Source: Candidatus Marinacidobacterales bacterium (lineage in GTDB: Bacteria > Acidobacteriota > Vicinamibacteria > Marinacidobacterales > DATDRI01). Taken from it: a stretch of DNA of 64,000 nucleotides. The notes beneath the pieces are model-generated. The model was not told the origin of the DNA, made no database searches, and saw nothing but the letters and a program-made list of their open reading frames with translations. The translations under genes were made by a program, and so were the position numbers. How positions within the stretch are numbered: position 1 is the first letter of the stretch; each line of letters begins with the position of its first letter. Below, in pieces: positions 14,759 to 26,757 of the stretch. The stretch lies in the NCBI GenBank assembly GCA_965219415.1, contig CBDCNP010000002.1, positions 512,001 to 576,000 on the forward strand, written 5' to 3'.

Positions 14759-15715
14759 TTAGTCCCGGCCAAACATTTTCATGATCTCCAGGAAAAGTAT
14801 GCTCTCCTCGTCGCCGAGCACGAGGGCGGTGTCCGCATGATCGTGGTCCTCGAGTACCAGAAACTCCGCTCGAGAACCCATTGCCTTTAGCCGTTTTACG
14901 AACAGCCGAGGTGAGTCATGGAGAATCGCCTCACCTGTTCCCGCGGAGAAGAAAACGACTGGAGGCGCGGTGTCGATGTTCTGGAGGGGATCGGCTTCCT
15001 GGCGAAGCGCGGGATCGGCGACGTAAGCATTACCTTCCGCCTTTCTTATCGCGTAGACTCCGCCACCGAGGGCTGCCTCGGGGTCCCCGACAACGATGGA
15101 CGTGCTGATGGGAGCGCAACCCTTGATGAGATCCGCGGGTAGCCTCTTCTCTTTGAGCCACCCTCCCCGTACGCAGACTTCGGCGGCCAATATTCCCCCC
15201 GCTGAATGCCCACCGACATAAATGTGATCCGGATCACCTCCGTAATTGGCAATGTTCCGATACAACCAGGACAATGCCGACCGGATGTCCTCGGGTTGGC
15301 TGGGATAGTAGAAGCCCTGCGGAGTGAGTCGATAGCTGGTGACGGCGGTGATGAAGCCTCGCTTGGCGAAAGGACCGGCAACGTATCCGTAGTGGCTGCG
15401 ATCCCCTTCTCGAAAACCTCCTCCGTGAATGAACAGGAACACCGGCGCCTTGGTGGGTTTCTCTTCGGGGAAGTACAAGTCGAGCTTCTGCTTCTCGTGC
15501 TCCCCAAAGGCGAGATCGAGAGTGTGCGGAAGCTTCTTTCTGGTTTTCGCTGTCCAGTCGTCGAGCATGTCATAGAAGGCGACCCAATCGATCTCGAACG
15601 TGTCGGCATGCGTATACGTGTAGTACTGCGTCTTCTCTTGCGCCTCCCCGGGTGACGGGAGCAGGAGAACGCTACTAAACAAGAGAGTCTTCGCAAGCGG
15701 TTTCGGATTCAGCAA
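14759..15715 (-). CDS. Secreted alpha/beta hydrolase (arylformamidase/esterase-like)
   Basis: Signal peptide; HGGGF oxyanion motif, GHSAG nucleophile elbow and a C-terminal His (HDH). Confidence 0.85.
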   Translation of the reverse strand: MLNPKPLAKTLLFSSVLLLPSPGEAQEKTQYYTYTHADTFEIDWVAFYDMLDDWTAKTRKKLPHTLDLAFGEHEKQKLDLYFPEEKPTKAPVFLFIHGGGFREGDRSHYGYVAGPFAKRGFITAVTSYRLTPQGFYYPSQPEDIRSALSWLYRNIANYGGDPDHIYVGGHSAGGILAAEVCVRGGWLKEKRLPADLIKGCAPISTSIVVGDPEAALGGGVYAIRKAEGNAYVADPALRQEADPLQNIDTAPPVVFFSAGTGEAILHDSPRLFVKRLKAMGSRAEFLVLEDHDHADTALVLGDEESILFLEIMKMFGRD

Positions 15716-15735
15716 TTTCGTTCCCTCCTTGGAAC

Positions 15736-16482
15736 CTAGCGGATCACCTTACCCTTAGAGCTCACCCGGTACGGCTCAGGCAACACAACCTCGACCTTTT
15801 TCCGGAAACCCTTCACTTCCCAGCCGAGTCGCTCTAAGGTTTCGGTGATGCGGGTCTGCACGCGGACAGAGTCCTCTTCGTCACTCACCAGAGCCTCTAA
15901 TAGCGGCTCGCGCGCACGTTCGTCGGCATGCACCTCGAGACACTCTACGGCAGAGATTCGCACCGTGTCATCCGGGCTTTTGAGGCAAGGGATCACACCT
16001 TCCACGACACCGCTCACGGGCATCGACTCGAGCGCCTTGATGATCTGGGTGGCCTTCTCTCCTCGAATGCGAACGGAATCGCCCTGGAAAAGGATCTCGA
16101 GGAGAAAAGGAACGACTTCTTCGTCGGGGCGGAGCGTGCTGAGAGCATCTATCGCCCACGTCAGTTGGTCGTGGCGACGGATATAGAGCTTCAACGGTTC
16201 GACCGCTTCTTGGCCGAAGCCGACGAGCACGTCGCGGACGTACCGTTTTTCGTCCTGATCGACTCCCAGGTTCTCGGTGGTCGCGGAGAAACGGCGCGCC
16301 AGTGAGTAGATCGCTTGGGAGGTGCCGATGGCTTTCAGCTTCTCGACCGCTTCCAAACGCGCGTCATGTTGTGCGTACCGCTCGAGGAGCGTCTTGGTGC
16401 TGCGGTTAATTCGTAGCCTGAGCCTTCCCTCCGCGCTCGTCAGATCTTTGAGCACGGAGAAGGCTGTTTCTACTATCGACAT
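15736..16482 (-). CDS. HEAT-repeat protein
   Basis: Repeated helical units such as 'DDTVRISAVECL...AREPLLEAL'. Confidence 0.7.
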   Translation of the reverse strand: MSIVETAFSVLKDLTSAEGRLRLRINRSTKTLLERYAQHDARLEAVEKLKAIGTSQAIYSLARRFSATTENLGVDQDEKRYVRDVLVGFGQEAVEPLKLYIRRHDQLTWAIDALSTLRPDEEVVPFLLEILFQGDSVRIRGEKATQIIKALESMPVSGVVEGVIPCLKSPDDTVRISAVECLEVHADERAREPLLEALVSDEEDSVRVQTRITETLERLGWEVKGFRKKVEVVLPEPYRVSSKGKVIR

Positions 16483-16781
16483 TATCTCTTATAGCATTAA
16501 TTAGTGGTCGTTCGTCTCTTCGACTCACTCCCGGGCCTCGCTCTTCAATAAATGGAGCGGGGCCCCACCCCCACGCCTCATGCTCCGTCGCTGGCGCGAC
16601 TGGGCATGGGCTCAAGGCTGCGCTCGGCCTCACGCCACGGCCGAATCGTCCGCATTCGGGCTGCTTCGAGGGTATCAGATGTTCCCGGTATCACTTCGAA
16701 GCTACTCACCCCCAGGATAATTCCCTTGCGTCTAGAAAACTGCCCTAACAATTCCTCCCAGCCGGCGGCGCTACGCGCCGA

Positions 16782-18014
16782 CTATAACGCTAATTCAGCG
16801 GGTGCGCCCCCCAAGGCCTCGTCAAAAAAGTCCATGACCCGATTCCAGAAGATCCCGGGGGGTGGGTAGTTGTCGAAACCATGCTCGCCGCCTGGCAGCA
16901 ACCATCGTTCACTGGGTAGACCCGCCTCGCGGCGAAGATCGTCGAGATACTCGGAGTGGTAAGGCGGCACTTGATCGTCGGCGTCGCCGTGAATGAACAA
17001 CACCGGGGCCTGAATCTCGGTAATGACCTCGGCGGGACGGATGCTCATAAGATCGACGCCGGCGCGCCAACGAACCGCGACGCTGAGCGGATAGCGGAGC
17101 CACGTCCCCACGCCGCGCGAGCTCAACATCTCACCGGCGGCGGCCCAAAAGTCCGAGTAGGGTGCGTCGAGGGCCAAGGCGGCGAGGGCGGGGTCCTCGG
17201 CGGCGGCAAAGATGGCGGACGCCGCGCCGTTCGAGGTTCCAAAAACCACCACCCCATCCGGCCGGACCGATTCCTGTTGGCGGACCCACTTAGTGATGCT
17301 GGCTATATCGAGACGCTCGTTCACGGTAAAGGTCACGAAATCACCTTCACTCGCTCCTCGGCCGCTCAAATCCATGGTGAGAAAACCGTATCCGCGACGA
17401 TACCAGTGTTTCGCGCTCTCCAAACCTTGGAAACGCGATGCCCACAAGCCATGCACGAAGACGCCGACTCGCCCATCGCTCCCTTCGGGAGGCGGGACGA
17501 ACCAACCTCGAAGATTGAAACCGCTAGACGAGGCAACCTCCACGTCCTCGTAAGGAAGTCCCAGGTCCGCCGGGTTTCGGAGAAACGGTTTGAGCACCAA
17601 CTGAACATCCCGGGAGACCTCCCCCTCTCTCTCTACGGTCAGCCTCACCGCATCCCCCGCCTCGTACTCGCTGATAAACAGACTGTGAAGCTCTCTTCCG
17701 TCCAGAAACACAGTCCCATCGACGCGAGTGATCACGTCGCCGGACCGCAGTCCGATTTCCCGTCCCGACTCCCATGGTCTGCGGATTTGCAAGCCTTCGG
17801 GATTTTCCGAACGTTCGGTCCAACCCAGAAACGCAAAGCCGGGCACCGGCCCCCCGTCCCGAACCGGGGTCCCGAAGAAGTCCTCACCCGGAACACGGCG
17901 CTGTCCCGTGAGATACGAGAGCGCCATCCGATCCACGGTGTAGGCAGCGAATCCAAGGAGACCCACGAGCAAAACGGTGAGCAACTTCCAGACCCAACGG
18001 CGTTTGTGGCTCAA
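16782..18014 (-). CDS. Membrane-anchored PDZ domain plus alpha/beta hydrolase
   Basis: N-terminal TM; PDZ 'GLRSGDVITRVDG'; hydrolase 'LRGWFVP...VHG', GTSNG elbow, 'IHGDADDQVP' and GGEH. Confidence 0.8.
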   Translation of the reverse strand: MSHKRRWVWKLLTVLLVGLLGFAAYTVDRMALSYLTGQRRVPGEDFFGTPVRDGGPVPGFAFLGWTERSENPEGLQIRRPWESGREIGLRSGDVITRVDGTVFLDGRELHSLFISEYEAGDAVRLTVEREGEVSRDVQLVLKPFLRNPADLGLPYEDVEVASSSGFNLRGWFVPPPEGSDGRVGVFVHGLWASRFQGLESAKHWYRRGYGFLTMDLSGRGASEGDFVTFTVNERLDIASITKWVRQQESVRPDGVVVFGTSNGAASAIFAAAEDPALAALALDAPYSDFWAAAGEMLSSRGVGTWLRYPLSVAVRWRAGVDLMSIRPAEVITEIQAPVLFIHGDADDQVPPYHSEYLDDLRREAGLPSERWLLPGGEHGFDNYPPPGIFWNRVMDFFDEALGGAPAELAL

Positions 18015-18112
18015 GAACGTTCCTCCTTACATACAGGCTTAAGAGGGCATCATAGCCATCGGGCGCCGACCGAGCAAAGCGGCGTGACTGTGCTACATTA
18101 GCCCTTCGCTTC

Positions 18113-18538
18113 ATGTCCACGACCTTTTCCCGCTCGATGCGCTCGCTCGAACGCGACGGGTTTCATTTCACTCTGGCCGCTTTACTCTTCGCTACGCTGC
18201 TTCTCGCTGCGTGGGGCGCCTGGTTTTTTCTCGCCGCAATCCCCGTGTATGCGGTGACCAATAACTTCCGTATCGATACGAGCGGTCCCTCGACAAGAAT
18301 CCTCGCGGAGTTCGATGTCGGCGAAGCTCGTGCCGTCCGGCCGCAGCAGAATGCATGGCTTCGTTCGAACGACACGCGCGCACTGTCCGCGACGGTTGCG
18401 CGAGTCAGTGAAACTAGAGTCGAGCTCATCGTTCACGAACCGATTTCTCCGAACCTACCAAACCAAGGCCAAGTCGAGATCGAAATAGAAAGAGCAACGC
18501 CGTCGACACTCCTGCTTCGTTCGATCGGACGCGACTAA
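18113..18538 (+). CDS. Short HlyD/membrane-fusion-like protein lacking the coiled-coil hairpin
   Basis: 'FSRSMRSL..TM(AAWGAWFF)..PVY' N-terminus and 'GQVEIEIERATP..LLLR' C-terminus resemble MFPs of peptide exporters. It is the first gene of the ABC operon. Confidence 0.55.
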   Translation: MSTTFSRSMRSLERDGFHFTLAALLFATLLLAAWGAWFFLAAIPVYAVTNNFRIDTSGPSTRILAEFDVGEARAVRPQQNAWLRSNDTRALSATVARVSETRVELIVHEPISPNLPNQGQVEIEIERATPSTLLLRSIGRD

Positions 18539-18549
18539 GGCTCCGAACT

Positions 18550-21215
18550 TTGCGCGCCCGACATCGTTTCTTTGCACCGGAGGTGGTCCAATCGTCCGCG
18601 ATGGACTGTGGACCGGCCGCCCTCAAGAGCTTGTTGGACGGCTTCGGGATTCCGGTGAGCTACGGCCGGCTACGAGAGGCCTGCCAAACCGATGTAGACG
18701 GCACCTCCATCGACACATTGGAAGACATTGCGGTCGAGCTCGGCCTCGAAGCCGAGCAGATCTTGGTGCCTACCGATCATGTTCTCCTCCCGGCGGCGCA
18801 TGCGCTACCCGCTTTGGCGGTTGCCGAGCTGCCAAACGGTGGGACGCATTTCGTCATCGTGTGGAGTCGACACGGTCGACTCGTGCAGGTCATGGATCCC
18901 GCCTTCGGCCGAAGATGGATCTCCGAGGAGCGGTTCTTGTATGAGCTCTACGAGCACACCATGCTGGTCCCCGCCGCCGCATGGCGTGAGTGGACGGTCG
19001 GGAGCGAGGCGCGCGGTGCCATCGGGTCGAGGCTCGATGCCCTGAATGTTCCGAAAAACACTTCACGTGATTTGATCGAACAAGCGTCAGCCCGTCCCGA
19101 TTGGAAGGCTTTGGCAAGACTGGACGCTGCCGTCCGGGCAACCGACTCGCTCGCGCGATCGGGCGGCATCGGTCTCGGCGATGAAGCAACGCGTGTTCTG
19201 AGAAGCCTCATCGAAAGCGGCGATATCCCGGAAGACTTTTGGTCGGCGCGCCCCCCTGATGATGATGGGGATGACGCTGATGAGGAGTCGGAGCAAGAGG
19301 AGCACGTCTGGGCACGAGGCGCGGTGCTAGTCCGAGTGCGTGGCCGTCGCCCGTCGTCCACCGACTCCTCCGAGCGCTCAACCGAAGAACTATCCCCAGA
19401 GCTCGTCGCGGCTCGTGAGGAACCTACCGCCCGGCCCGGTAGAGCGTTATTCAAACTCCTTCAGGCCGATGGACGGCTCTCCCTGACCGCTTTGGCCCTC
19501 GCCTTTTTCGTGGTAGCCGGCGGTCTCGTGATCGAAGCACTACTCTTTCGTGGCCTACTGGAGCTGGTTCCAGCGCTCGGCTCATCCACGCAACGGCTCG
19601 GTGCCTTGTCGGCGCTCGTAGCTTTCGCCTTGTTTCTCTTGCTCTCGAGCTCCCCATCGCGGGAGGCATCCTCCGTCTCGGGCGACGGCTCGAAGGCCGG
19701 CTGCGCACGGCGTTCCTAGCGAAAATCCCTCGTCTTGGGGATCGTTACTTTCGAAGTCGACTGATCTCCGATATGGCAGAGCGCAGCCATAGCGTCCACG
19801 GCCTGAGGCGTCTCCCGAATCTGGGTGAGGCCTTCATCGCTTCTTTTTTCGAGCTGACGTTGACGGTTGCAGGAATTATCTGGCTCGCCCCCGCAAGTGC
19901 CCCGGTTGCGCTTTTCGCGGGTGTGCTCGCGATCGGACTGCCGCTGGCAGGTCAACCGGTTCTGATGGAAAGGGACCTTCGCGTGCGGAGCCACCTGGGC
20001 ATCCTTAGTCGCTTCTACCTCGATTCACTGCTAGGGCTGGTGGCGGTGCGGGCCCATGCCGCTGGGCCTTCCATCCGAAACGAGCACGAGGCGGAGCTCG
20101 TGCAGTGGACGAGAGCGCGTTTGTCATTCCAGAGATCCGTGGTCGGTGTCGAGGGCATCCAGGCCCTGACCGGATTCGGGGTTGCCGCCTTCCTCCTATT
20201 GAGTCACCTGAATCGGGGAGGAGACCTGGGGATCGTGTTGCTCTTGGTCTACTGGGCGCTCAACTTGCCGTTTCTCGGTCTCACCATCGCTCAGCTTGCT
20301 TGGCAATACCCGGCCCATCACAACGTCACACTTTGCTTGACCGAGCCGCTCGGTGCGCCCGACGACGAGTCAGACCCGAATTCTCACACAGCAACAAAGA
20401 ACGACCCCGGAAGGAAAACGGGCGCCGCGATTCAGATGCGAGAGCTGAGCGTGCGAGCCGGCGGCCACATCATCCTCGATCGTATCGATCTCGAGATCGA
20501 TCCGGGCAGTCACGTGGCGGTGGTGGGTCATTCCGGCGCGGGCAAGTCGAGCCTGTTCGGGGTCCTCCTCGGCTGGCACCGAGCGAGCTATGGAGGGGTC
20601 CTGATCGACGGCGTCCCCCTGGAGGGTAGCGAGCTCGGACGTCTCCGTTCGGGAACGGCGTGGGTCGATCCGTCGGTTCAGGTTTGGAACCGCTCACTGT
20701 CCGACAATCTGCTGTATGGGCACGAGGGGCCCGCCATGTCTCTCGAGATGGCCATCGATCAATCCGATCTCCGCGACGTACTGGAGTCCTTGCCGCAAGG
20801 CCAGGAAACGCTGCTGGGAGAAAACGGCGGATTGGTTTCAGGCGGTGAAGGCCAAAGAGTTCGGCTCGGCCGCGCGATGATGCGATCGTCGGTGCGCTTG
20901 GTTCTCCTGGATGAGCCGTTTCGCGGCCTTGGGCGCGAACAAAGGGCCGAGCTGCTGGCTCGTTGTCGGGAACTTTGGAAACACGCCACTCTGCTCTGCG
21001 TCACTCACGAGATCGCCGAGACCGATTCGTTCGATCGCGTGCTCGTTATGAACGGTGGAAAACTCGTCGAGGACGGCGCACCGGAATCACTCGCTGCCCA
21101 GGCAAGCTCTCGCTACCGCAACCTGCAGGAGTCCGAAAAAGCGATCGCCGGCATATGCAGTGGCGAGTCTTGGCGACGGCTCGAGCTCGTCGATGGCAAG
21201 TTGGCCGAGCGATAG
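18550..21215 (+). CDS. Peptidase C39-containing ABC transporter (PCAT), one frameshift near 19650
   Basis: C39 catalytic motifs QSSAMDCGPAAL, THFVIV and MDPAFGRR; TMD; Walker A GHSGAGKS, VSGGEGQR and LLDEP. ORFs 18550..19719 and 19773..21215 join across a 1-nt shift. Confidence 0.85.
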
Positions 21216-21217
21216 AA

Positions 21218-23138
21218 ATGTCTACACCCGATCACGAATCCATACGCCACCTCTCGTGGCCGACCGAGGAAATGGCGGAGGGGTTGGCCCTCCTGGCACG
21301 ACGCGCGGGCCTCGGCCCTCGTAGCGCGCAGATACCTTCCCTAGACCAGAGCTCACGAGACGACACCTTCTCTCATTGGGATGGCGGCCAGCGCAGCGTG
21401 GATGGGGCTCGAAGCCCAGCCCGTCGAGTCCACCTATCCGGAGCTTCCCGGCTTTCTCTTGCGATCGGGGCCGGCGGTCGTTCGCTTGCCCGCACCGGGC
21501 ACGAATCGTTTTCTGCTGTTGTTGAAAGGCAAGGGGAAACAACGTCTCGATCGTCGGAAACGACCGGGCCATCCACTCACTGCCTCTCGCGCGGGTGGAA
21601 GGAATCCTGGCCCCGCACGAAGCAAAGCGAGTCGGCGTTATGGTCGACAAGCTTCTCGATCGTATCGGGCTCGTCGGACTCGATGGCACCCGTCGCCGGC
21701 AACGCGCTCGAGAAGTCATGGTGCGCGAGCGATTAGGCAAGGCTGTGGTGGGCGGTTCTTGGATATTGCGCTTGCCTGCGAGCGCTAGAACCAAGTCGCT
21801 GATGAGGCACGCGCACCTCCCCCATTACTTACTCGCCTTCATTGGGGCGCACACCGTTCAGTATCTACTGTGGATCGCTTCGTGGTGGGTGATCGGGCGC
21901 GGCGCGCTCGAGGGACGTGTAAGCTCGGGATGGCTGGCCGCTTGGGTACTTCTACTGCTTACCATGATCCCATTCCGACTAGTCGCCACCTGGTTCGAGG
22001 GTTTGTTGAGCATTCGGGCCGGAGCATTACTCAAACAAAGACTTCTGCAAGGAGCGCTTCGACTCACCCCAGACGAAATTCGGCACGACGGGGCCGGTCA
22101 TCATTTGGGTCGTGTACTCGAATCGGAGGCGGTCGAAGATCTCGCCCTCACGGGAGGGTTCTTGGCGTTGATCGCCGGGATCGAATTGATCATCGCAACC
22201 TTCGTACTCGCAACGGGTGCGGGAAGCGGGTACCACGTCGTACTTCTCGGCGCCTGGCTCGGTTTGGCGTGGATGACGGGCCGCCATTTCTTTCGGCGGC
22301 GGCGGCGGCGGTGATGGCCGGCCAGGCAAGTGCTGGGTTGTTGGGCGGTCGGACTCGGCGGCATGCTTCTCGCCTATCGAGCGCTCGACAAGCTCGTCGA
22401 TGGCTTCTCCGATCTGGCTGATGCGGTCATCGCCTGGCAACAGGTGTCCCTCCTTTCCACGGCGCTCGGCGACGAGAAGCCCCCGGCGAGCCAGCATTGG
22501 ATATCCCCCCGGATACAGGACGCCCCTCGACTCTTCTCGAAGCCGACGCGATCGGTTTTCGTTATCCCGATCGAACGTCCCCGGTTATCCAGGAGGCGAC
22601 TCTCAGGATCTCGGTGGGGGAGCGAGCGATCCTCGCTTCGCCATCGGGCGGAGGCAAGTCCACGCTGGTGTCTCTCTTGACCGGGCTCCGCACGGCAGAT
22701 TCAGGTTCGATGCTTCTTTACGGCCTCGCCCCGGAAAGGCTCGGCGCCCAACGTTGGACGCGAAGAGTCGCCGCCGCCCCACAGTTCAATGAGAATCACG
22801 TGTTCACCGAGACCTTCGCCTTCAATCTCCTGATGGGTCGCGGCTGGCCGCCGAAGCCTGCCGACCTAGAAGACGCGGAAGGGTTGTGCCAGGAGCTCGG
22901 CTTGGGTGGGCTCATCGAGAGAATGCCGGGCGGGCTTTTCCAGCTGGTCGGCGAAATGGGCTGGCAACTCTCTCATGGTGAGAAGAGCCGACTCTACATC
23001 GCGCGGGCACTGCTCCAGGGAGCCGACGTCGTGATCCTCGACGAGAGCTTTGCCGCGCTGGACCCGGAGAATTTCCGCCGGTCGCTCGAATGTGCCCTCG
23101 AGCATGCTCCCAGCCTTCTTGTAACAACCCATACCTAA
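21218..23138 (+). pseudogene. Second ABC transporter subunit (degenerate N-terminal domain, TMD, NBD), several frameshifts and an apparent internal deletion near 22310
   Basis: Pieces lie in ORFs 20963.., 21381.., 21595.., 22330.. and 22497... Walker A SPSGGGKST, signature LSHGEKSR and ILDES. Confidence 0.75.
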
Positions 23139-23306
23139 CGTTCGTGGGTGCGCTCCCACGCCGGATTTTGCCCTCGGGGTGTGGGCTTGACACCACGACG
23201 ACTTTCTTGTACGCAGGTCCTGCGGCTGTCTGGCCTGTTCAGCGGGGGGATGTTCCCACTGTTGCAGCGGGTCAGTTTCTTACCCGTTAGGGGGGGCGAA
23301 AGCCAC

Positions 23307-23360
23307 ATGAAGGTCAAGACAAGTATCAAGGCGGGGCCCAGCATCCGGAGGGGCCGGTAG
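23307..23360 (+). CDS. Putative 17-aa precursor peptide MKVKTSIKAG-PSIRRGR
   Basis: ATG at 23307 after a G-rich SD-like run, TAG at 23358-60. It lies directly downstream of the C39 exporter and upstream of a strong terminator. The AG dipeptide resembles a double-glycine-type cleavage site. Confidence 0.65.
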   Translation: MKVKTSIKAGPSIRRGR

Positions 23361-23391
23361 CCTCGACCTAAGCAACTTACGGTGTGATCTG

Positions 23392-23424
23392 GCGAGCAAC
23401 GGGTTCTCGTTGCTCGCTTTTTTT
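23392..23424 (+). terminator. Intrinsic terminator after the peptide ORF
   Basis: GCGAGCAACG-ggttct-CGTTGCTCGC followed by T7. Confidence 0.85.
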
Positions 23425-23432
23425 GCGGCTGG

Positions 23433-24125
23433 TCAACGCCCTGCTGCGCGGTCCTTGCTGAGACGACTCGCGCTCTTCTTGAACAGGGCCTTTACGTCCG
23501 GTCGCGCCAGGAACGAGCTGGAATGCTCGGGAAGGGCGCTGTTTCGAATCCACTCGACCTCCTGGGCCGCCTTTGCGAAAGCCTCGACCGCCTCCTCTGG
23601 ACGCCCAAGCGCCTGATAAGCTTCTCCGAGCGTGGCATAGCCCGCATAGAGTAGCGGCCTTCCGGAGAATCCCTCGGCGATTCGCACCGACGCCTGCGCC
23701 TCGGTCTCCGCCGCCCCAGCGTTTCCTTGTGCCAGGTACACCTCTGCTAGCGCTGCGGCGGCGCGTGCTTCGATTACACGGAGCCGGGAGTTGGCCGCCT
23801 CCCTCTTGGCCTTCACAAGAGTACTTCTTGCGTCGGCAAGTCGTCCCTCAGCCAGATAGACCCGCGCCAGCTCGACCCCCGATAAGATCTGCATTCTCCT
23901 CTCACCGGCCCGCGCTGCGGCTTCCCCACCAGATTTACACTTGGCGCGCGCTTGCCTAATATCGCCACGGAGCCGGTGCAGTCTTGACTGACCGAGAAGA
24001 ATAAGAGGTAGCAGGTCTTCCGCAAGGGCATCGCCAGCCAGCTTCGCGGCCTCGCCCAAATTCTTTTCTGCTGCCTCGAACTGACCCAGTGTGGTCAATA
24101 GGTGGCCAAGGTGAGCCTTTACATC
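23433..24125 (-). pseudogene. C-terminal fragment of a TPR protein (5' part missing)
   Basis: TPR-like helices (LGHLLTTLGQFEAA, LAEVYLAQGNAGAA, LGEAYQALGRPEEA). Upstream of about 24125 the frame is only the antisense of the neighbouring gene. Confidence 0.6.
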
Positions 24126-24129
24126 GGCT

Positions 24130-25142
24130 ACGCAGGGTGAGGTGATCGCCAACGATCTCATCCTCAAGGCAGAAACGGTCCGTATCGAAGGGACCATCGA
24201 GGGGGATCTGATCGCGGCCGCCCAATCGGTCACGGTGACCGGCCGAGTCGGCGGCGACGTAATCGTAGCGGTCCAGAAACTGAACGTGGACGGCCGGGTC
24301 GATGGGAACGTGCGAGCCGGGGCCGAGTTCATCGATCTGAAGGGGTTCGTTGCGAGGAATGTCACCGTGGCCGGCGAAAGCGTGGAGCTCCACGCCGGTG
24401 CGGTAGTAGATGGAACTTTTCCGAGAAAAGCAACCTCGATGGACGCATAGGGCGCGATCTCATCGTTTTTGCGGCAAAGAGCCGCATTAACGGCCGGATC
24501 GGGGGCACCGCCCGGTTGGCAGGAGGATCGATCAGCATTGATCCCGACTCTGAGATTGGAGGCGACGTCCGCATCTTCACCGGTAAAGATCCGGACATTT
24601 CCCCCGAAGCGACTCTTGCGAGCGATCCGGAAATCGAGATCATCCGGGAAACACCTGAGTATGCGAGTGCAGGGTCTTATCTGTGGCCGATCCTCTTCTG
24701 GGCGGCGGCCTTTGTGTACGGTTTAGTGATACTGCTCGTGCTGCCAAGATTCTTCGCTGGCGTGCTCAGCCGGATACCGAGGTACGGCCTTTCCATCGGG
24801 ATCGGAGCCGCCGCCCTCGTCGCCGTCCCGGTGGTGGCGACGATAATTAGTCTTACTCTGGTCGGACTCCCGGTTGGAATCCTCACCTTTGTGGCTTATG
24901 TCGCGGCCGTCTACTCGGCGCAAGTCTTCGTTGGAACGTGGCTGGGACGAGAGCTGTTAGGACCGCCGGTGGGGCAGGGCGATGCCATCGGAAGGCTCGC
25001 CCTGGGGCTGGCCCTGATCCACGTCGTGAAGCTGATTCCGTTCGTTGGGTCGCTGGCGGATCTAGCGGTATGCTTGTGGGGCCTGGACGCGCTCACCCTG
25101 TACTTTTTCGAGCCTCGCGCGGCGCAGACCGCGCCGGCCTAG
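24130..25142 (+). pseudogene. Polymer-forming cytoskeletal (bactofilin-like) beta-helix protein with C-terminal TM domain; 5'-truncated and frameshifted near 24415
   Basis: Repeats 'V.I.G.V.GD(L/V)' followed by a multi-TM segment 'LTLVGLP...IPFVG'. Confidence 0.7.
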
Positions 25143-25165
25143 GTAGTCTGGATTCCAAATAAGAG

Positions 25166-25684
25166 ATGGTATTGAAGGCGATACAGCAGTTTTTCGATAC
25201 CAAAATTCAGCCTGCTACGGGCATCGCCCGAACAGGTTCGGCTGGCTCGACCGCATCGGAGCACTCCCTGCAACTTGCCACCGCCGCGCTGCTGATCGAA
25301 ATGACGCGGGCCGACTTCAAGGTCGAAGAGAGCGAGCGGCGCATGGTGGGTGACGCCATTCGGCGCGCTTTCGATCTATCGCCTGAGGAAACCGCGGAGC
25401 TCATTCGTCTCGCCGAAGAGGAGTCGCAGCAATCGGTTTCGATTTACGACTTCACCCGGCTCATCGATCGGGGCTTTGAATTAGGGCAGAAAAAACACAT
25501 CGTGGAGTTGCTCTGGAGGGTAGCGTTCAGCGACGCCGAGCTCGAAAAACACGAGGAGCACCTCATCCGCAAGATCGCCAAGCTCATTCACGTCCCGCAC
25601 CCGGATTTCATCGACGCCAAGCTCAGGGCGAAGGAGTCTCTGAAGCACGAGGCGTCCGAGGAAGCGCCGCCGTCAACAACCTAG
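25166..25684 (+). CDS. TerB family protein
   Basis: 'LATAALLIEMTRAD' and 'LWRVAFSD..L..HEEHLIRKIAKL' motifs. Confidence 0.85.
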   Translation: MVLKAIQQFFDTKIQPATGIARTGSAGSTASEHSLQLATAALLIEMTRADFKVEESERRMVGDAIRRAFDLSPEETAELIRLAEEESQQSVSIYDFTRLIDRGFELGQKKHIVELLWRVAFSDAELEKHEEHLIRKIAKLIHVPHPDFIDAKLRAKESLKHEASEEAPPSTT

Positions 25685-25686
25685 GG

Positions 25687-26757
25687 CTAAGCGGTGGAGA
25701 CGGCATCCGCGATGAAGCCACCTACCTCCTTGGTTGGCTTGGCCGCATCCGGGCCCACCAAGTCGGCGGTCAAGAAACCCTTCTTCATGGAGGCCGCGAT
25801 CGCTTCGTCGATCGCAGCAGCCTCCTCACTCAAATCAAAAGAGTAGCGAAGCATCATCGCCATCGAACCGATGGCACCGATGGGGTTCGCAATTCCTTTT
25901 CCAGCGATGTCGGGAGCGGAGCCGTGCACCGGTTCGTAGAGCCCAACGCTACCCCCGATGCTTGCCGAGGGTAGAAGCCCCAAAGAGCCGGCCAACACCG
26001 ACGCCTCGTCACTCAAAATGTCGCCGAATAGATTCCCCGTCACCATGACGTCGAACTGGCGGGGGTTTGTGATGAGCTCCATCGCCGCCCGATCGACGTA
26101 CATGTGATCGAGTCGGACGTCGGCGTATTCTTTCCCGATGGATTCGACAACCTCGCGCCACATCTTAGACGTCTCGAGCACGTTGGACTTGTCCACCGAA
26201 GTGACATGGCCTTGCCGCCCTTGCGCGGCCTCGAAAGCGACCCGGGCGATCCTCTCGACCTCTGCACCGGTGTAGACCAGGGTGTTCCAGGCGCGAGCAG
26301 CCGCTCCGTCCCCTTCCCTTCCCCGCGGCTCGCCAAAGTACACGCCGCCGATGAGCTCCCGGACGATGAGCACATCCAAACCCTTTAGTGCCTCATCGCG
26401 AAACGGTGAGCCTTCGGGATTGAATTGCGACACGATGGGACGAAGGTTCGCGAAATTGCCCAGTAGGCGCCGCAGTTCCAGCAGGGCCGCCTCGGGCCGC
26501 TCACTGGGAGGGAACTTGTCATAGGCCGGATCGCCCACCGCGCCTAGAAACACCGCCTGGCTCCCGAGACAGGCGTTTCGCGTCTCGTCGGGGAAGGCCT
26601 TGCCAAACTGGGCGTAGGCCCGCGTTCCAAACGGGTGCTCCGGCGCCGAGAGCTCATGGCCGAAACGACTCGCCACGGCCTCGAGTACACGGATGGCCTC
26701 TGCCGTGACCTCGGGTCCGATGCCGTCTCCTGGAAGGACTGTTATTTCGAGCTTCAT
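25687..26757 (-). CDS. leuB: 3-isopropylmalate dehydrogenase
   Basis: LPGDGIGPEV, VDKSNVL, NLFGDILSDEAS and YEPVHGSAPDIAGKGIANP motifs. Confidence 0.97.
   Translation of the reverse strand: MKLEITVLPGDGIGPEVTAEAIRVLEAVASRFGHELSAPEHPFGTRAYAQFGKAFPDETRNACLGSQAVFLGAVGDPAYDKFPPSERPEAALLELRRLLGNFANLRPIVSQFNPEGSPFRDEALKGLDVLIVRELIGGVYFGEPRGREGDGAAARAWNTLVYTGAEVERIARVAFEAAQGRQGHVTSVDKSNVLETSKMWREVVESIGKEYADVRLDHMYVDRAAMELITNPRQFDVMVTGNLFGDILSDEASVLAGSLGLLPSASIGGSVGLYEPVHGSAPDIAGKGIANPIGAIGSMAMMLRYSFDLSEEAAAIDEAIAASMKKGFLTADLVGPDAAKPTKEVGGFIADAVSTA

Follow-up and report, generated by a model that had tools for sequence, protein, structure and literature searches.

A conserved 17-codon gene beside a decaying C39 exporter locus in an acidobacterial genome, and its family of tiny candidate precursor peptides

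A 17-codon open reading frame (ORF), MKVKTSIKAGPSIRRGR, in a 64,000-nucleotide stretch of DNA from Candidatus Marinacidobacterales bacterium (phylum Acidobacteriota; GenBank assembly GCA_965219415.1, contig CBDCNP010000002.1, positions 512,001 to 576,000; this whole stretch is hereafter called the window) is a genuine conserved gene, whose product has the anatomy of a short leader followed by a tail. The gene is linked in relatives to genes for a peptidase-containing ABC transporter (PCAT) with an N-terminal C39 domain, a second ABC protein without a peptidase domain (ABC2) and a HlyD-family adaptor, and to a convergent gene for a Ser/Thr kinase with TPRs. In the window this module is a relic, with damage to the adaptor, to each of the two ABC genes and to the kinase gene. 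With confidence only a little better than even, we hypothesize that the ORF is the local member of a wide family of tiny precursors, whose leader would be cut off and whose tail would be exported as a signal, the system surviving here as a remnant. Peptide export by C39 transporters is well known. The known substrates are described as carrying leaders of ~24 residues or far more (PMC2887384), and in double-membraned bacteria PCAT substrates are described as often unknown, as for HetC (PMC10986499). The candidate substrates visible here are encoded by genes below the size handled by gene callers, occur in several phyla, and are tied to regulators and not to modifying enzymes.

The ORF was originally picked out by a sequence-only reading of the window, as a peptide divided into MKVKTSIKAG and PSIRRGR, and both the frame and its position were confirmed (Table 1). 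The same-genus reference genome, G001, carries MKVKTKLKAGWSIRRGRGK at the same place (G-numbers denote the genomes of relatives, L-numbers loci, X-numbers sequencing runs and P-numbers studies). The two ORFs differ at 11 codons, 8 of them synonymously, which is unlikely under neutrality because random changes are, by a rough reckoning, synonymous about a quarter of the time; the synonymous codon turnover therefore points to selection on the protein. All 11 orthologous ORFs (the window's and those of 10 relatives, 15–20 codons long) begin with ATG. Read by eye, the flanks in all 11 show a ribosome-binding stretch rich in purines or in G ahead of the ATG and, within 90 nt after the stop codon, a hairpin with a T-run; the terminator hairpin of G001 is kept in a different sequence. 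Codon usage is varied across the set, with three codons at Val3 and four each at Thr5, Ala9 and Gly10. The encoded N-terminus follows M(K/T/Q)V(K/R)(T/S)x(I/V/L)(K/R/Q)(A/S)G, and is followed by tails of 5–10 residues that consist mostly of Gly, Lys and Arg: PSIRRGR, WSIRRGRGK, PGTGGGHD, PSSDRGTGF, TGRKF, DGGKKF, SGGNQFNHYP, WKGKKF, GHGGCGKQF, PGDGKQY and WSGQHGKQF.

A chance open frame without function is hardly credible as an explanation of these data. Seventeen codons are far under the statistical limit of gene calling, and a strict DNA pattern for the leader matched only 2 of 401 genomes of the phylum, the window's own and one other. However, the table of 11 orthologues comes close to refuting chance, a reversed-pattern control gave no match in the 401 genomes, and a family of 50 loci (see below) stands beside them. 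The strict pattern moreover gives too low a count, since Arg, Gln or Ser variants occur in order-level relatives.

The ~160 bases 5′ of the small ORF (23144–23306) are better conserved with G001 than the ORF is, with long identical blocks and a predicted hairpin (the CAGCGGGGGGATGTTCCCACTG region). It is conceivable on this ground that the function lies in a small RNA or a regulatory 5′ leader and that the ORF is incidental, and a 207-nt transcript model does fold better than shuffled sequences (z –2.37). We regard this as very unlikely, since a long match to the upstream bases was found in only 1 of 40 relatives searched (G001) and in none of the other 39, whereas the peptide persists in 10 relatives whose upstream DNA is different. 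Rfam covariance models gave no match at E-values up to 1 over window positions 16000–26000, there is no gene downstream on the plus strand for a leader to control, and the codon turnover speaks for the protein as the object of selection. The perfect 10-bp-stem terminator reported behind the ORF was borne out as an intrinsic terminator, a G+C-rich hairpin (12 pairs by the tool, with a perfect core of 10 bp) and then a T-run, in a segment (22900–23600) with two terminator-like sites against a mean of 0.8 in shuffles. The ORF is, as had been stated, the sole plus-strand coding unit between the ABC gene and the hairpin, no other long frame being present, and 168 bases of non-coding DNA separate it from the ABC2 pieces. 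A candidate promoter was recognized by eye only (Table 1); a consensus promoter scan listed none in this region of the window or in G001.

Linkage of the peptide gene to the transporter and kinase was examined in the order and the phylum. A search with the G001 PCAT gave a match in 20 of 41 order-level genomes, and loci were fetched for 16. Ten relatives (G001, G004, G005, G008, G010, G022, G026, G028, G034 and G038) combine PCAT and ABC2 with a flank longer than 1 kb, and the leader ORF is present in every one of them, at 0.17–4.5 kb after ABC2. In the loci without it (G024, G030, G020 and G006) the DNA ends no more than 730 bases past ABC2; G002, G016 and G018 have PCAT fragments only, and the unpublished G007 was used for no claim. 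The next gene, in 10 of 10 order-level relatives, is the convergent kinase–TPR gene, a conserved neighbour overlooked in the sequence-only reading. It encodes a membrane Ser/Thr kinase in which the membrane helix is followed by a long TPR region. Outside the order, PCAT was found in 4 of 120 genomes of the phylum, with leader-type ORFs beside it in two: G080 has four tiny leader ORFs, and G062 has two ORFs of 38–42 amino acids (aa) in which the leader motif follows an N-terminal extension. In G004, part of the 3′ end of ABC2 has been duplicated, and the extra fragment stands between ABC2 itself and the small ORF (L078, 13443–13745).

The peptide family extends well beyond this order. The other genome with the strict pattern has a 60-aa ORF with two units of the form KVKTNVKAG-x-NHNETLV. 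A protein search with this ORF returned 61 relatives, all unnamed and none with a Pfam domain; a 60-aa member of the family matched no Pfam or NCBIfam family at E-values up to 10, and NHLP and Nif11 models did not match the peptides. An alignment scan using one genome per species found 50 loci in public genomes, labelled mostly as classes of Acidobacteriota and also as Planctomycetota (including Kuenenia), Verrucomicrobiota, Actinomycetota and others. These contain 84 leader-starting ORFs of 14–140 aa (34 of at most 30 aa; 26 single units without the NHN motif). Long members (e.g. L009, L014, L017, L018 and L025) consist of repeats of a leader-like unit, 3–8 variable residues and NHN(Q/E)T..R, and end in a last leader unit with a short tail. 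The NHN(Q/E)T motif, whose last three residues read Asn-x-Thr, is invariant in multi-unit precursors, and may be a second recognition, cleavage or modification site. The ORF of the window is shaped like the last unit of the long members standing alone, and represents the shortest form of the family; many distant members have Gly-Gly at the end of the leader. A PCAT of 45–57% identity lies within 10 kb at 19 of the 50 loci, in most cases accompanied by ABC2 and a full-length HlyD. These PCAT-bearing loci usually run peptide, HlyD, PCAT, ABC2; L011 and L039 have the arrangement of the window, with the peptide after ABC2.

The sequence-only reading had named small KT..KAG-type ORFs near homologous transporters as the check on its model, in which a short leader is conserved and the core varies. 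The model is upheld by this comparison of homologues, from the transporter side in all the order-level relatives and half of the distant phylum-mates counted above, and from the peptide side at the 19 PCAT-bearing loci. The nearest clusters in the ESM Atlas (193, 309 and 66 members) are unnamed, as 'hypothetical protein'. In a literature search whose scope did not extend to subscription journals and supplements, no publication on this peptide family was found, and none containing NHNETL, NHNQTL or KTNVKAG, occurrences of NHNET being unrelated words. With neither a Pfam or NCBIfam model nor a paper found, the family of tiny peptides appears to be undescribed.

Among 32 chosen neighbour ORFs at 13 of the loci, no known peptide-modifying enzyme was found, in agreement with the earlier remark that none is adjacent. 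These ORFs encode TPR proteins, HlyD, an extracytoplasmic function (ECF) sigma factor or housekeeping proteins, or have no match. A TPR_10/TPR_12 protein of 363–480 aa without a visible signal peptide is present at 12 of the 13 loci. By tblastn, the TPR protein was found at 19 and a PF07638-type ECF sigma factor at 17 of the 50 loci, including loci without a transporter, which hints at a dedicated sigma factor that either controls these peptides or comes under their control. The PF07638-type sigma factors are 44–57% identical to one another and are sometimes present three to a locus (e.g. L011:541-1143, L017, L027 and L022); in L018, an ECF N-terminal piece is fused to TPRs.

The ORF could alternatively be the precursor of a peptide made by ribosomes and modified after translation (RiPP) or an antimicrobial, leaving the cell through the same transporter after maturation by enzymes encoded elsewhere. 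Unmodified peptides of only 5–10 residues are unlikely to be antibiotics, and the antimicrobial role earlier suggested for an unmodified product found no support. None of the 32 neighbour ORFs matches a known maturase family, and the window ORF and its order-level orthologues, with their very short tails, lack the NHN(Q/E)T motif, which is strictly conserved after each leader unit of the multi-unit members and could serve there in recognition or modification. Among NCBIfam models, those of the NHLP bacteriocin exporter come closest, and the large arrays of paralogues, hypervariable in their tails, are reminiscent of the natural combinatorial RiPP families described in PMC2887384. Weighing these points, we consider a RiPP or antimicrobial precursor unlikely.

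The export locus in the window had been read as a candidate minimal export system; its decay was missed, and all its large parts are in fact damaged. Lesions were called by alignment to G001, whose three genes are open (154, 887 and 709 aa). What had been read as one transporter gene at 18550–21215 is split by a 1-base deletion near 19638 relative to G001, which leads to a stop and divides the gene between two frames (18550–19719 and 19773–21215); the 3′ piece is 85% identical to residues 352–887 of the G001 PCAT. The supposed second ABC subunit (21218–23138) is a pseudogene, differing from G001 by +1 base at 21378, +1 at 21540, –220 at 22311, +1 at 22343, –1 at 22449 and –2 at 23110. Likewise, the supposed short MFP-like gene (18113–18538) encodes a 141-aa product without a Pfam or NCBIfam match, which is the remnant of a HlyD adaptor. 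Residues 1–65 and 56–150 of its G001 orthologue match two sites ~650 nt apart in full-length HlyD genes, and residues 279–376 of the L009 HlyD match this short form. Because the two ends of the remnant match the two ends of full-length adaptors, its middle has been deleted, amounting to about residues 66–278 of the full adaptor (~400 aa). Full-length HlyD was found in G004, G005, G024 and G030, and the short form is common to the whole genus (G000, G001 and G002). The kinase–TPR gene, which in relatives encodes 1183–1245 aa with Pkinase and TPR domains, is reduced in the window to its last quarter, the final ~219 residues (tblastn, residues 740–957 of the G001 protein), the kinase, the membrane helix and most TPRs being gone.

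Sequencing error is an unlikely cause of the frameshifts, given the 220-base deletion, the clean flanking genes and the identical contigs obtained in two studies. The three upstream genes (14765–18014) show no frameshift relative to G001, and contigs of runs X1 (study P1), X3 and X5 (study P2), one of which may be the source sample, show no differences and no gaps over 18100–23450. Among the 16 runs listed, none holds RNA. In a 99%-like strain (run X7), the contig joins 21310 to 24172, a deletion of ~2.86 kb that takes ABC2, the small ORF and the TPR remnant. Its PCAT gene has gained a base after 19643, by which the frame is restored at that point, and has lost one at 19893. The PCAT lesions of this strain thus differ from those of the window, and sister strains seem to be losing the locus independently of one another. 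The genome is 96% complete and has a single PCAT/ABC2 set and a single leader-type ORF, with no second copy. The small ORF itself is intact despite the broken exporter. With adaptor, ABC genes and kinase gene all damaged and no second copy present, the small peptide is probably no longer exported here. We therefore suggest that the locus be annotated as a decaying remnant, with pseudogenes and one small intact ORF. Among order-level relatives, G016, G018, G022, G026 and G002 have PCAT fragments only, or copies with stop codons (G002 retains only the first ~185 PCAT residues), and loss of the system seems to be frequent in this order.

Table 1. Features of the export locus and its surroundings, in window coordinates
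Feature	Position	Strand	Description and basis
HlyD-family adaptor remnant	18113-18538	+	141 aa: N-terminal membrane helix and C-terminal piece, middle gone
PCAT gene, 5′ piece	18550-19719	+	C39 domain aa 12-140, ~200-aa acidic insert, first membrane helices; PF03412 E 4e-22
PCAT gene, 3′ piece, other frame (open from 19443)	19773-21215	+	rest of membrane domain and ATPase; PF00005 E 1e-20
ABC2 pseudogene, without peptidase domain	21218-23138	+	frames and alignment to G001; intact G001 orthologue 709 aa
Candidate promoter TTGACA-N17-TACGCA (TATATA in G001)	23187-23215	+	by eye only
5′ leader kept in G001, with predicted hairpin and G-rich ribosome-binding stretch (23290-23296)	23216-23306	+	alignment and folds (two sequences only)
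Small gene, 17 codons and stop, leader MKVKTSIKAG, tail PSIRRGR	23307-23360	+	orthologues in 10 relatives
Intrinsic terminator, hairpin (23391-23418) and T-run	23391-23425	+	terminator scan
Convergent Ser/Thr kinase–TPR gene remnant	23433-24365	-	TPR Pfam matches; homologous part 23475-24131 only

The divergent neighbour of the locus (16782–18014, minus strand) encodes a 410-aa membrane-anchored protein with PDZ and alpha/beta-hydrolase (S9/S15-like peptidase) domains, and is kept in G001.

The intact C39 triad claimed for the transporter holds. The Pfam domains of the locus are Peptidase_C39 (PF03412, E 4e-22) and two ABC_tran domains, and the Gln, Cys, His and Asp columns characteristic of PCATs are invariant in 13 of 13 aligned homologues, the window included. 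With a mean column identity of 67%, the transporters resemble one another unusually closely in their C39 domains, whose closest solved relatives are PCAT1 (4RY2, E 3.5e-15), ComA (3K8U) and LahT (6MPZ). The union of peptidase, membrane domain and ATPase in one polypeptide is found in G001 (887 aa) and is broken in the window near 19638. A partly very acidic insert of ~200 residues lies between the C39 and membrane domains (about residues 140–350 of the G001 PCAT; window 18970–19600), and ABC2 has an N-terminal extension of ~200 residues without a family match. The best NCBIfam match of the intact G001 PCAT is TIGR03796, and the G001 proteins fall far below the TIGR03796/TIGR03797 cut-offs (155.9 versus 853.3 bits for PCAT and 90.7 versus 709.4 for ABC2). 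A three-gene cluster of the NHLP type (HlyD, ABC with peptidase, ABC without peptidase) is present in relatives and at distant loci, and all three genes are damaged in the window. As for the leader, Gly occupies –1 in 11 of 11 orthologues, with a small residue at –2 (Ala in 8, Ser in 3), as in double-glycine leaders. The Leu at –7 and –12 and the Glu at –8 are absent: Lys or Arg stands at –7 and Val at –8, and the leader, with its Met at –10, does not reach –12. With conservation that ends at Gly, a small –2, a hydrophobic –4 and variable sequence beyond, the peptides therefore have the leader/core anatomy of the double-glycine type.

From these sequence relationships we infer cleavage behind Ala-Gly, export and a signalling role, as follows. 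The 10-residue N-terminus (Met-Lys-x-Lys-Thr-x-hydrophobic-Lys/Arg-Ala-Gly) most likely serves as a leader of the double-glycine type, though an unusually short one; it would be bound, and cut behind Ala-Gly, by the C39 domain of the dedicated transporter next to it; the PCAT/ABC pair with its HlyD adaptor would export the short variable tail, here PSIRRGR; and the exported tail may be read as a signal by the facing kinase, via its TPR region. The earlier observation is partly confirmed, and the earlier interpretation partly supported. A more general idea, less likely than not, is that of linear-peptide communication in double-membraned soil and water bacteria, in which genes of 14–30 codons, cut by C39 domains, would yield strain-specific tails of 5–10 residues, read by a TPR kinase or by a TPR protein with an ECF sigma factor, and multi-unit precursors would give several signals. 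If the tails are indeed signals, peptide-based communication in poorly studied soil phyla would become testable, and a search pattern for hundreds of unannotated genes would be at hand.

Several observations weigh against cleavage, export and signalling as outlined here. On the side of linkage, 31 of the 50 peptide loci have no visible PCAT, some being cut by contig ends and others being separate arrays, and G141 and G045 have the transporter with no leader ORF found within 7–8 kb by the patterns used. The link to the kinase is one of synteny only and is confined to one order, outside which the recurrent neighbours are the cytoplasmic-looking TPR protein and the ECF sigma factor, and not a kinase. 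The short adaptor also occurs in G001, whose ABC genes are intact, and the genus may already have been without outer-membrane export. On the side of cleavage, the 10-residue leader lacks the –12 and –7 leucines of the 'hydrophobic knot' of PCAT1 and LahT; its recognition would have to differ, because the leader stops at –10 and has Lys at –7. Pro follows the proposed cut in the window, as it does in 4 of the 11 orthologues, and Pro at that place is disfavoured by many proteases. A complex prediction of the C39 domain with the 60-aa two-unit precursor scored 0.04 against a mark of 0.32, in a run without controls, and counts neither for nor against cleavage.

A small protein that stays uncut inside the cell, where it might regulate or plug the transporter or kinase or, as a basic peptide, bind RNA or ribosomes, would account for the missing –7 and –12 contacts, for the very basic composition (7 of 17 residues are Lys or Arg) and for an ORF that is intact here though the exporter is broken. 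We nevertheless hold it to be quite unlikely: the conserved part stops exactly at Gly and gives way to sequence hypervariable in both residues and length, the peptide is linked at many loci to an exporter bearing a protease, and an ordinary ribosomal protein L36 gene lies elsewhere in the genome. A likeness of the first eight residues to ribosomal protein bL36 was also pursued; in the whole genome PF00444 matches only C3:1662982-1663092 (67.2 bits), not the ORF, and a bL36 relic was rejected.

Double-glycine export followed by signalling, the reading we favour, has partial parallels among known systems. The membrane Hanks-type kinases PknS and PknT reportedly activate the ECF43-type sigma factors EcfK and EcfP (PMC13147305, PMC8999054). 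Proteins of both kinds adjoin the peptide genes described here: in this order a Ser/Thr kinase of the membrane, and at the 17 loci elsewhere ECF sigma factors of PF07638 type. Pathways like PknS/EcfK and PknT/EcfP are not known to have a peptide ligand. For peptide export across a double-membraned envelope, HetC of Nostoc PCC 7120 is described as a PCAT proposed to export a short signalling peptide, its substrate still being unknown (PMC10986499, PMC4133259); unlike HetC with the PatS/RGSGR peptides, the transporter here has its candidate substrate encoded beside it. In Synechococcus elongatus, small secreted double-glycine proteins with a role in biofilms are described (PMC4997328). Compared by description, they share with the present peptides the small size, the GG motif, a double-membraned host and a non-antibiotic role, but they are described as small proteins and not as peptides of 15–20 residues.

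With PCAT1/CtA of Clostridium thermocellum, ComA/ComC and LahT, the transporter shares a C39 domain with Gln, Cys, His and Asp fused to an ABC exporter. For PCAT1 and CtA, the description in PMC6959990 gives the leader consensus L(-12)xxxE(-8)L(-7)xxxxG(-2)G(-1), a helix from –10 to –4, a hydrophobic knot formed by –7 and –12, and specificity set by –4. The leader described here likewise ends in a small-small pair, with Gly at –1, Ala, Ser or Gly at –2 and a hydrophobic residue at –4. It has 10 residues in contrast to the 24 given for CtA, and a cargo of 5–10 in contrast to 66; also unlike PCAT1 are the ~200-aa insert (the model match starts at residue 351), the partner ABC protein without a peptidase and the adaptor. 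The NHLP/Nif11 clusters (TIGR03794 HlyD-like, TIGR03796 and TIGR03797), as described by Haft et al. (2010, PMC2887384), have the same three-gene architecture, precursors in which conservation ends at the Gly motif and is followed by a hypervariable region, and precursor genes that often form paralogous arrays, sometimes far from the transporter. Their leaders are reported to average 83 and 70 residues, against 24 for classical bacteriocins, whereas those described here have 10, and the transporters score far under the family cut-offs. Given the NHLP-like three-gene architecture, the sub-cut-off scores and the short leader, we therefore place the system as a variant of this double-glycine export scheme with an extremely short leader and cargo, and possibly as a peptide signalling module.

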